Assembly: GCA_963667785.2 (NCBI GenBank)
Contig: CAXXMU010000001.1
Location: 800,001-864,000, forward strand
Reading direction: 5' to 3'
DNA from: Alphaproteobacteria bacterium
GTDB lineage: Bacteria; Pseudomonadota; Alphaproteobacteria; UBA828
DNA: 64,000 bases
The notes beneath the pieces are model-generated. The model saw nothing but the letters and a program-made list of their open reading frames with translations. It was not told the DNA's origin and did not search any database. The position numbers and the translations under genes are program-made. Positions 47,525 to 50,327 of this stretch are shown in pieces. Positions within the stretch are counted from its first letter, which is position 1. Every line of letters begins with the position of its first letter.

Positions 47525-48073
47525 ATGTCAGACATCAGTTCACCGCCTCCCTCCGGCGGCCCGATCACCGCCTCGGTCAAGTGGTTCAATCCCACCAAGG
47601 GCTTCGGCTTCCTCGTTCCCGACGACGGCTCGCCCGACGTCTTTTGCCACGTGTCCGCGGTCGAGCGGGCCGGCTACGACACGCTCGCCCAGGGGGCCAC
47701 GGTCACCTGCGAAATCGTGCAGGGGCAGAAGGGCCCGCAGGTCTCGCAAATCCTGAACGTCGATACCTCGACCGCGACCGCTCCGCTGCCGCGCAGCGAC
47801 CGGCCGCGCCGCGCCGGTCCGGGCGGCTACCAGGCCCGGCGTTTCAACGAGCCGATGGGCCCGACAGAGGAAATCGAGGGCACGGTCAAGTTCTACAACG
47901 TGAGCAAGAGCTACGGCTTCGCGACGCCCGACGGCGGCGGGCAGGACGTGTTCATTCACGCCAAGGTGCTGGCCCGCTCCGGCCTCGACGACCTGGAGCC
48001 CCAGCAGCGGGTGCGGCTGACGATTACCCAGGGCCCGCGCGGGCCGCAGGCCACCAATATCGAGCTGATCTGA
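47525..48073 (+). CDS. Cold-shock protein with two CSD domains
   Basis: VKWFNPTKGFGF...DVFCH and VKFYNVSKSYGF...DVFIH. Confidence 0.92.
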   Translation: MSDISSPPPSGGPITASVKWFNPTKGFGFLVPDDGSPDVFCHVSAVERAGYDTLAQGATVTCEIVQGQKGPQVSQILNVDTSTATAPLPRSDRPRRAGPGGYQARRFNEPMGPTEEIEGTVKFYNVSKSYGFATPDGGGQDVFIHAKVLARSGLDDLEPQQRVRLTITQGPRGPQATNIELI

Positions 48074-48228
48074 GCCTGCACGCTTGCGACGCGCGGCTCC
48101 GCCCGGCGGGCCGCGCCGCCGCACGGGGAGGCGGCCGCGGGGCCGCAGGGAGCGAACGTGGGCGCCACCGGAGCGTCACCCGTGTGTGGCTCAGTCCTTG
48201 GCGGTGTTTTTCTCGGTGGCGAAGTCGG

Positions 48229-48377
48229 CGCTTCACGACGGGCGTTGCCGCACGCCATGCAAGACTCGCTTCCGGCTGGCGGGCTGCGCCTTTGCCGGGC
48301 GGGAGTCGAACCCGCTGGATCGCTACGAGAGGTTTCAGTTCGTGGCATCCTCCTCTCCAGGGCTTACCCTGGCGCAA
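48229..48377 (-). mobile_element. 5' fragment (domain I) of a group II intron; no RT ORF and no domain V/VI
   Basis: Minus strand TTGCGCCAGGGTAAGCCCTGGAGAGGAGGATG...GAAACCTCTC...CCAGCGGGTTCGACTCCCGCCCGGCAAAGG...CCAGCCGGAAGCGAGTCTTG...GTGAAGCG; a (G/U)UGCG 5' end with a recognisable bacterial group IIB domain I layout. Confidence 0.8.
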
Positions 48378-49320
48378 TAAGCGTCCGGGCAACGCGGAAG
48401 CCGAAGGTGACGACCCGGTTCCCGACGCTGTACCCGAGGCGGATGGCGGAACGGAGGAACCACGGTATGTTGCTCCACGAACCGCCGCGCAATATGCGCT
48501 TCCCGCAATCACCGCCCGCCACCCAAGCGCTGCCGTCCGACGGCGCGCCCGCATAGTCATTGTGCCAGCAGTCCTCGACCCATTCCGATACATTGCCCGA
48601 CATGTCATGCAAGCCGAAACCGTTCGCCGCAAACGAACCCGCCGGAGCCGTTTCACGGCCGTCCCAGCGGCTGCCGCAGCCGCGGCAGTTCGCCCGGTTC
48701 CGGCCCACCGAATCCCCCCAGCTATAGCGCGTCCGCGTCTTCGCGCGCGCCGCATATTCCCACTCCGCCTCCGTCAACAGCCGGTACTCCTTCCCCGTCT
48801 TCCGCGACAGCCACGCGACATACGACCGCGCTTCGTTCCAGGTCACATGGATGACCGGCCGACTTCCACGGCCCCAGCCCTTGTCATCGGGGCGGTACCC
48901 GTCGCACCCGCCAGCGGATACGCAGGTATCCCATTCCGCAAACGTCACCTCGTGTTTGCCCACCGCAAAGGGTTGCGAGATCGTCACCTCATGCTGCAGG
49001 ACTTCATCTCCGTCACGGCCTTCTTCCGACCTCGGCGAGCCCATGACGAACGAACCCGCCGGCACCACCACCATTTCCGGACAGGACGGGCAATCCCGGA
49101 ATGTTTCCCCCGCCTTCGGCCCCACTTCCGCTTCGGCCAGCAGCGCCGTCGGAACAAACCCCGCACGCCCGCCTGCCTCGACACGGCCCGCTGCGTCATG
49201 CAGCGCAATCTCTTCTGCTGCCTTTACAACATCATCCACGCTTCCGGCTGTTCCGTCGCTGGCAAGAAGCGAAGCGGCTACGAAGGCCACGGCGGAGAGG
49301 GTACGGGCTATGAGTTTCAT
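48364..49320 (-). CDS. FGE-sulfatase (SUMF1/CLec-fold) domain protein with signal peptide; mosaic, possibly a pseudogene
   Basis: FRDCPSCPEMVVVPAGSFVMGS, EVTFAEW, RPVIHVTW, YRLLTEAEWEYAARA, NGFGLHDMSGNVSEW, RGGSW...GFRVARTL; the stop codon comes from the intron fragment. Confidence 0.85.
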   Translation of the reverse strand: MKLIARTLSAVAFVAASLLASDGTAGSVDDVVKAAEEIALHDAAGRVEAGGRAGFVPTALLAEAEVGPKAGETFRDCPSCPEMVVVPAGSFVMGSPRSEEGRDGDEVLQHEVTISQPFAVGKHEVTFAEWDTCVSAGGCDGYRPDDKGWGRGSRPVIHVTWNEARSYVAWLSRKTGKEYRLLTEAEWEYAARAKTRTRYSWGDSVGRNRANCRGCGSRWDGRETAPAGSFAANGFGLHDMSGNVSEWVEDCWHNDYAGAPSDGSAWVAGGDCGKRILRGGSWSNIPWFLRSAIRLGYSVGNRVVTFGFRVARTLIAPG

Positions 49321-49344
49321 GTTGGCACGATCATCTGATCGTTT

Positions 49345-49545
49345 GTCGTCGGCGCGATATAGCGCGACAATCTGGATGAGAGCCGCCTCCGCCGCCCCGT
49401 AGCTCAAGACAAGTCGGCTACCCTGTTCCTCCAGCGCCTTCGCAAGCGCCTTCAGACTGCCGTGCAACCACCAGCGCGACGCGACCCCGAGGGCAGTATC
49501 GCCTGCCTCTTCGTCCAGCACAAACAACGGAACAACGGGCCGCCC
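49345..49545 (-). pseudogene. DNA photolyase N-terminal fragment
   Basis: GRPVVPLFVLDEE...GVASRWWLHGSLKALAKALEEQGSRLVL..G is the photolyase/cryptochrome alpha/beta domain motif; rest of the gene is absent. Confidence 0.8.
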
Positions 49546-49989
49546 AGCGCCGGCGCCGGTCGCTGGCGTGGGGCACCGGCGGCGGAAGTCGTCTACGGCC
49601 CGACGCACGGCTCCCTCACCGCCGTCATCCCGTCGGACGGCCACCGCGTCGCGCCCAGGGGTGTGCGCGGCGGCGCCGACGCGACGCCCGGCCGGACCGT
49701 CAGGATCGACAGCGACGGCCGCGAGACGGTGCTCCCCAACTTCGTGCGCCTCACCCTCGTGCCCGGCGAGCGTTTGCGCGCGGTGGAAGGCGGCGGGGCC
49801 GGCTACGGCGACCCGCTCGCGCGAGAGCCCGCGCATGTGCTGCGGGACGTGGAGGAGGGGTGGGAGACGCAGGCGCGGGCGCGCGACGTCTACGGCGTGG
49901 CGCTCGCCGCGCCGGACGCGAAGGCGCCGCTCGCCGTCGACCGGGCCGCAACCCGCGCCCTGCGCGAGAGGCTGGGCGCGCCAGCGTAG
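49546..49989 (+). pseudogene. Hydantoinase B/oxoprolinase C-terminal fragment
   Basis: GAGRWRG, PRGVRGG, GGGAGYGDPLARE...VLRDV..G..T...ARDVYGV...VDRAAT; no 5' part or start codon. Confidence 0.82.
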
Positions 49990-50280
49990 CCCGCATTTCT
50001 CACCATGGTTACGGCCTGCGTCGCGCCCAGGCGTTCGATCCGCCAGGAGTGGGCCGAAAAGCGTATCAGGGAATACGGTTGAGGCTCGCATCGTGCGCTC
50101 CGCGCGCGTGGACGCGCGACGCGGGCGGGCGCCTGGGCGCGACCCGAAGGGCGGCGCCGTCCGGCCGACAGTGTGCGTCGAAGCGCTTGCCCGATGTACC
50201 CGCATCGCGCTGCGCGCCCCTCCTACCCTGTCGGACGGACAGCGCCGCGCAGACCATGACCCTGGTGAGAAATGCGGGCT
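49988..50280. mobile_element. MITE with ~40-bp imperfect terminal inverted repeats (IS1380-like ends)
   Basis: AGCCCGCATTTCTCACCA is a perfect 18-bp IR at both ends, extending imperfectly to ~40 bp; no transposase inside. Confidence 0.8.
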
Positions 50281-50327
50281 CCTGACCCGTTCCGGAAGTC
50301 TCCATCCTTGCGCGCCTCCCCCAACTC

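Follow-up and report, generated by a model that had tools for sequence, protein, structure and literature searches.

Here, we describe a locus in a 64,000-nt stretch of an alphaproteobacterial genome (the window, meaning the whole stretch analysed; its genome, G000, is 98% complete and assembled in 14 contigs) at which two retroelements of different classes lie side by side. A gene for an FGE-sulfatase protein with a C-type-lectin fold ends in a variable region (VR) of the type made by diversity-generating retroelements (DGRs), and this end is joined directly to the 5' end of a group II intron (Table 1). Best read, each is an ordinary representative of a known kind of element, and they came to lie next to each other by chance; we consider it quite probable that two independent retroelement histories met at this one site by coincidence.

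The PF03781 match of the gene (E 1e-54) covers residues 80-312 of 318 (open reading frame 49320..48364), and the N-terminus is predicted to be signal-peptide-like. The protein ends in ...LRGGSWSNIPWFLRSAIRLGYSVGNRVVTFGFRVARTL-IAPG*, and the hypervariable codons lie at 48403..48474. The last gene-side base before the intron is 48378, after ...CGGACGCTTA; the intron side then reads TTGCGCCAGG. The last four codons (I-A-P-G) and the stop are intron-remnant sequence, the stop being a TAA (48366..48364) inside the intron, and the codons before them, for A-R-T-L, are those that coincide with the intron target. An earlier note on this DNA, made from its letters alone, had described the gene end and the direct VR/intron junction in this way, with a group II 5' end that supplies the stop codon and breaks off after ~150 nt, and all of these sequence statements hold: the remnant measures 149 nt.

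Table 1. Features of the locus in window coordinates
Feature	Position	Strand	Remarks
FGE-sulfatase / C-type-lectin-fold gene	48364..49320	-	PF03781, 318 aa
DGR-type variable region (VR), orphan	48379..48492	-	114 nt, colinear with the template repeat and VR of G015
Intron target in the 5' exon	48378..48389	-	IBS2-like CCCGG (-12..-8), A (-7), IBS1 CGCTTA (-6..-1)
Group II intron 5' remnant	48229..48377	-	nt 1-149, domain I; RF02005
IS21-family istB 3'-end remnant and sequence after istB	48134..48228	-	fused to intron nt 149
Cold-shock gene, two CSD domains	47525..48073	+	convergent, downstream of the FGE gene
Hydantoinase B/oxoprolinase C-terminal fragment	49462..49989	+	upstream of the FGE gene; profile positions 426-519 of 519

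The nature of the variable region becomes apparent by comparison with G015, a genome of the same genus that holds a complete DGR (L076; contig C1, about 2,160,300-2,164,900) with target, reverse transcriptase (RT) and template repeat (TR). The G015 target is a 986-aa multidomain open reading frame whose FGE domain shares 66% identity with the window protein, the RT has 490 aa (RVT_1, E 3e-15), 18 of the 20 mismatches between TR and VR fall at TR adenines, and a 7-bp hairpin directly follows the VR. The two systems have in common the VR frame, the VR length and the end ...GFRV(S/A)RTL. By contrast, the RT, the TR, the hairpin right after the VR and the large multidomain target are all G015's.

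When the window VR is aligned to the G015 TR without gaps, 19 of the 29 adenine sites differ as opposed to 13 of the 85 other sites (Fisher p 8e-7). The same pattern is evident across the family. Among the 120 best homologues, 86 have the same spacing (GGSW-24-GFR) and the common scaffold GGSW...P..LRSA.R....G.R....GFRVARTL, in which the variable segment is C-terminal. In these 86 homologues, the mean entropy is 3.11 bits at codons with an adenine in TR positions 1-2 and 0.44 elsewhere; the residues at the two AGG codons are mainly R, W and G, while the AAC-type codons are hypervariable. Thus, variation is concentrated at positions that are adenines in the related TR of G015, and because the excess differences fall at these TR-adenine sites, the adenine-only pattern of the variable codons, which the earlier note had read from the window, exceeds an effect of GC content. 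The GC-rich VR end ...GCCCGGACGCT is retained in the window. Judged by these sequence features, the C-terminus of the window protein is a DGR-type VR on a C-type-lectin/FGE scaffold. At 79 loci of more distant homologues, a DGR-like RT lies within 6 kb at 4, and the TR screening, which covers these 4 RT-positive loci, identified a TR-like repeat at all 4.

The machinery that would write such a VR is missing from the genome. BLAST of the VR against G000 gave the self match only, and an ungapped scan that tolerates changes at adenines found no TR in G000, the best non-self place having 34 non-A mismatches in 117. No cognate TR for the window VR was found in the 21 genomes of the genus, where the sole TR-like non-coding match is G015's own. 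RVT_1 gave 0 matches in G000 while control genomes were positive, and the DGR RT of G015 as query also gave 0 matches in G000; Avd was not searched for. FGE orthologs are present in 6 of 40 relatives (G004, G007, G010, G017, G018 and G020), and the five of these genomes that were searched (G020 was left out) contain no DGR-type RT and have intron-type RTs or none. Moreover, the VR shows no sign of ongoing diversification. Its DNA (117 bases) is identical in all seven species, with two substitutions just upstream. Contigs (not raw reads) of four runs, each from a different study, carry no variant letters at 48378..48494; the samples are metagenomes of sponges and coral reefs and one host organism. 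The same contigs vary at 48495, at 48501 and within the intron stump, with 14 further differences beyond those listed. A cluster representative of 133 member sequences (P0001) shares the IAPG tail and departs from the window VR at a single position (G to R). Because G000 has neither a TR nor an RT and the VR is invariant in seven species and four studies, we regard the VR as not actively diversified; it is an orphaned, frozen DGR variable region without an active DGR.

The orthologs also define the state of the gene before the intron. They are 97-99% identical to the window at the protein level and 98.8-99.2% at the DNA level, and end in ...ARTLTP* as opposed to ...ARTLIAPG* in the window. Ortholog and window DNA agree as far as ...ACGCTTA, after which the orthologs continue with CGCCTTGA (..TP*) and an 8-bp GC hairpin, possibly a DGR element or a terminator, which in the six orthologs lies ~40 nt downstream; the window departs from them exactly after ACGCTTA, switching to the intron, which in G000 takes the place of the hairpin. 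A search of G000 for the ortholog sequence just past the VR returned only repeats starting at least 76 nt past the query start. Both allelic states are present in metagenomes: contigs of run X1 bridge the same two junctions (VR/intron and intron/istB), and X9 carries the uninterrupted allele. The gene is part of a shared block of ~1.0 kb (L007-L013; window 48379..49358) that is 98.8-99.2% identical in seven species representatives, sits in several different flanks, begins at the ATG or as much as 38 nt ahead of it and ends 70 nt beyond the stop codon. In four genomes, the ATG adjoins the end of an insertion sequence (IS), which in L011, the only case checked, terminates an rve-type (IS3-like) transposase gene. 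These observations suggest a recent horizontal spread of the FGE block.

The sequence that follows ACGCTTA in the window is the start of a group II intron. In answer to the covariance-model check that the earlier note had proposed for this segment, RF02005 (group-II-D1D4-6) matches 48308..48205 with 51.7 bits, above the gathering score of 49 (E 5.9e-13), in an alignment that lacks 126 model positions; this is the sole non-tRNA Rfam match in the window. A tRNA/tmRNA T-arm, suggested by the GGTTCGACTCC motif in the stump, was rejected, as ARAGORN and Rfam found none there. The 149 nt at 48377..48229 are 79-99% identical to intron 5' ends in 9 of the 20 other genomes of the genus. The stump is closest to L028 (99%) and is 95-97% identical to other copies; among the matches to relatives, those that extend over its 3' portion stop at nt 148-149 (nt 142 in one shortened copy). 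Intact relatives are ~2.0 kb long, score 115-134 bits with RF02005 and have domains V/VI, for which only L050, with 40 bits, exceeds the gathering score of RF00029. The full-length relatives encode a 419-aa intron-encoded protein (IEP) in which Pfam identifies the RT domain (RVT_1) only and no endonuclease domain, and which is 70% identical to ltrA products of Bradyrhizobium. Thus, the stump belongs to a multicopy, endonuclease-less, RmInt1-like family. The stump itself lacks the exon-binding sites (EBS1 and EBS2), the IEP gene and domains V-VI, and the whole of G000 contains no other intron copy, catalytic domains V/VI or RVT_1. Splicing is now impossible; therefore, the protein ends in ...ARTL-IAPG and not in ...ARTL-TP.

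Two side observations concern this intron family. The intron load differs greatly within the genus, as seen in RVT_1 matches, which number 0 in G000, 36 in G003 and 57 in G010. In G017, an ORF-less intron derivative of ~607 nt (L087 280-887) has the start of domains I-IV and domains V/VI and no IEP gene, and a second target-like site (GCCGGAACGCTTA) lies ~20 nt downstream of it.

The position of the intron follows the target rule of its own family. EBS1 is a six-base segment at about intron nt 214-219; comparison of 14 distinct copies shows that it covaries with the intron-binding site IBS1, which comprises the last six bases of the exon, directly in front of T(T/A)GCG. Nine different EBS1 sequences occur in these copies and, with G-U pairs counted, the pairing is 6/6 in 10 of the 14, with one mismatch in two copies and two mismatches in another two. 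This covariation also sets the register of the intron 5' end: the copies begin UUGCG or UAGCG, as does the whole local family. EBS1 of L028 (TAAGCG) is the exact complement of CGCTTA in the window, 6/6, in keeping with the pairing with ...ACGCTTA that the earlier note had proposed to test. In addition, the window exon carries the motif of the intron subfamily, CG(G/A)A, at -10..-7 (CGGA). A loop reading TCGGT/TCGGG is tentatively assigned as EBS2. This arrangement matches that of RmInt1, whose IBS1 and IBS2 are placed at -1..-7 and -9..-13 (PMC4075523). Judged by sequence pairing, the insertion in the window follows the EBS1/IBS1 rule of the intron family. This argues against the link between two retroelement classes that the earlier note had suggested, as does the finding that the other intron copies examined lie away from FGE genes.

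At its other end, the intron is fused to the remains of an insertion sequence. Over ~89 nt, window 48222..48134 shares 88-90% identity with the 3' end of an IstB_IS21 gene in G013 (PF01695, E 1.8e-63) and the sequence downstream of it. Intron nt 149 (...GAAGCG) is joined to this remnant at a point inside istB rather than at an IS end; no other copy of the remnant was found in G000. Two further intron copies carry an insertion of an IS110-family element (DEDD_Tnp_IS110, E 1.4e-13) precisely at the nt 149/150 boundary, one in L034 1648-2323 (G003) and one in L169/L171, a metagenome copy of a different intron subfamily. The two IS110 copies are 98.8% identical, and relatives with ~82% identity occupy other ...CG|CG... 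sites. The window stump ends at the same base (48229/48228), and the istB remnant follows. The IS110-family element may be an intron-targeting IS, and the stump end at nt 149 could conceivably be the scar of such an element.

Beyond the istB remnant lies the terminator region of the convergent two-domain cold-shock gene. With the intron stump, the istB stump and the truncated hydantoinase B gene, the locus is a patchwork of rearrangement scars. A synteny search with 49400..50300 did not recover the ancestral locus and instead found a multicopy repeat that resembles a miniature inverted-repeat transposable element (window 49987..50280; ~294 nt, ~19-nt terminal inverted repeats). This repeat has 18 BLAST matches in G000 and >360 across all 21 genomes of the genus, and no Rfam family matches it. 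Part of the window stretch is present in six RNA runs, from which we draw no claim about expression.

These findings support a model with the following steps. The FGE gene would be a former DGR target that encodes a secreted binding protein of the C-type-lectin/FGE fold, in a lineage in which the C-terminal ligand-binding loop is written by DGRs, and the window VR would once have been copied, with mutagenesis at adenines, from a template repeat rich in AAC and AGG. Together with ~70 nt of downstream sequence, the gene would then have passed between species of the genus, in surroundings rich in IS elements, leaving TR and RT behind, and the VR would have been frozen. In the G000 lineage, an intron of the local multicopy family would subsequently have entered the joint of ...ACGCTTA and CGCC..., five bases short of the native stop codon, at a place where the codons for A-R-T-L happen to spell the IBS2-IBS1 target CCCGG-A-CGCTTA of an intron with EBS1 TAAGCG. 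Reverse splicing is the most likely route of this insertion. PMC4496777 describes both that RmInt1 invades ectopic genes with an IBS-like sequence and that group II introns decay by loss of the 3' terminus. Finally, the intron would have lost everything beyond nt 149 and been fused to the istB remnant, with removal of the 3' exon and the native hairpin. The protein, with its altered tail, is probably still functional.

Several points weigh against this model. With respect to the VR, 0 differences in 117 nt are not significantly below the ~1% divergence of the rest of the gene, and contigs drop rare variants, such that low-frequency VR diversity is possible; for these two reasons, the invariance amounts to "no excess variation" and not to "unusual conservation". 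Also, G000 is 98% complete and repeats may be unassembled. With respect to the intron, the usual 5' end consensus of group II introns is GUGYG, from which UUGCG/UAGCG deviates. EBS1 and EBS2 are deleted in the window, and we infer the pairing from relatives. The 3' exon junction is lost, and reverse splicing is, therefore, indistinguishable from a fusion at the 7-nt identity ACGCTTA with the 5' exon of an intron that already existed. The insertion point lies 1-2 bases past the end of the TR/VR homology in G015, and because the ...GFRVARTLTP end is conserved across the family, the insertion site is not random.

The alternative that survives best is that the junction arose by illegitimate or microhomology recombination between ACGCTTA at the gene end and the identical 5' exon of another intron copy, in the same rearrangements that produced the intron/istB fusion. 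We consider this improbable but worth weighing. The patchwork of intron, istB and hydantoinase B remnants fits such an origin, the closest copy, L028, has the 5' exon ...GGAACGCTTA, and the 3' exon junction is missing, the post-VR sequence of the ortholog being unmatched in G000. However, the CGGA at -10..-7 matches beyond the shared 7 nt and would be needed for target recognition and not for recombination, and the break falls exactly at intron nt 1.

Less likely still is that the intron subfamily homes recurrently to the ...GFRVARTL end of DGR-target FGE genes, close to the site for initiation of mutagenic homing (IMH), such that the two retroelement classes would be linked, as the earlier note had considered. 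The ...ARTLTP end, conserved in many family members at the protein and the DNA level, would be dependable as a target; the match of the window site is perfect for IBS1 and good for IBS2, and the site is situated 1-2 nt past the TR/VR homology boundary in G015. Yet, tblastn of the FGE protein found no FGE gene near the intron at any of 35 intron loci in the genus, nor was one found at any of eight metagenome loci with the same intron start (four distinct sites). A degenerate pattern of the F-R-x-x-R-T-L end followed by the intron start had 0 matches in metagenome_contigs, where near relatives of the window may be missing. Furthermore, the orthologous site is empty in G004, G010, G017 and G020 despite the related introns in these genomes, and the other insertion sites share just the short CG(G/A)A...TA motif. 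A limited search of the literature turned up no publication in which an intron sits at a variable region of DGR type, from which we make no claim of absence. We give similarly little credence to the idea that the 3' boundary of the VR (...GCC CGG ACG CTT A), kept near-invariant by DGR retrohoming throughout a large gene family that spreads horizontally, serves as a landing pad for the RmInt1-like subfamily. If it did, intron invasion at the landing pad, by removing the recognition hairpin, would be one way in which DGR targets become uncoupled and frozen.

The proposal of the earlier note that the gene is a remote (trans) DGR target, here in the form of an active one that is diversified by a TR/RT cassette elsewhere in the genome, is very unlikely. 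The VR does carry the DGR signature, an assembly of 14 contigs at 98% completeness could lack a cassette, and DGR targets >100 kb from their RT are documented (PMC5758913). Against this stand the lack of a TR by BLAST and by the adenine-tolerant scan and of RVT_1 or a DGR-type RT in G000, the lack of a cognate TR in the 21 genomes of the genus, a VR that is identical in seven species and in contigs of four studies, and the replacement of the sequence downstream of the VR, hairpin included, in G000. Of the outcomes that the earlier note itself had named as refuting its reading, we obtained the lack of a TR, the lack of site-specific variation and the presence of further intron copies at unrelated sites. 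Capture of an intron cDNA at the VR/IMH during DGR retrohoming, which the earlier note had also raised, is favoured by nothing but the closeness of the junction to the end of the TR/VR homology and can practically be discarded, given a junction at intron nt 1 that obeys the EBS1/IBS1 rule, many normal copies with the same 5' end in the genus, no DGR machinery in G000 or the five ortholog genomes searched, and no TR-like adenine changes in the intron part.

A chance encounter of two ordinary elements, thus, remains our preferred explanation. Taken alone, the junction carries little weight; it is a place at which three known processes meet, i.e., a frozen orphan DGR target, an ectopic intron insertion and 3' decay. 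It does hold a caution for annotators: the signature of a VR outlasts its DGR, and a VR-like C-terminus is not evidence of active hypermutation. Moreover, the covariation series with its nine EBS1 variants defines the target rule of an uncharacterised alphaproteobacterial intron family.

Each part of the locus has a counterpart in a known system. The ~89 nt beyond the intron resemble the IS21 family in that they represent the end of the istB gene and the sequence after it; unlike an IS21 element, the window has a fragment only, with no istA/istB between terminal repeats and no intact copy in G000. The FGE gene resembles the TvpA-type DGR proteins of Treponema denticola, for which PMC5758913 describes an FGE-sulfatase domain with the VR at the extreme C-terminus, and in both cases variability is confined to AAC/AGG-like codons of the template repeat. 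The window gene differs in having no TR or RT in its genome and no diversity among species or samples. Finally, the intron family differs from RmInt1 of Sinorhizobium meliloti in its sequence, its targets and its UUGCG/UAGCG start, and the 149-nt stump can neither splice nor move. The family is reminiscent of RmInt1 in the 419-aa, RT-only IEP of the relatives and in a 5' exon recognised through EBS1 (about -1..-6) and EBS2 (about -8..-12), and the history that we suggest for the window, with ectopic insertion at an IBS-like sequence followed by decay of the 3' part, has its parallels in the ectopic insertion of RmInt1 and the 3' decay of group II introns described in PMC4496777.

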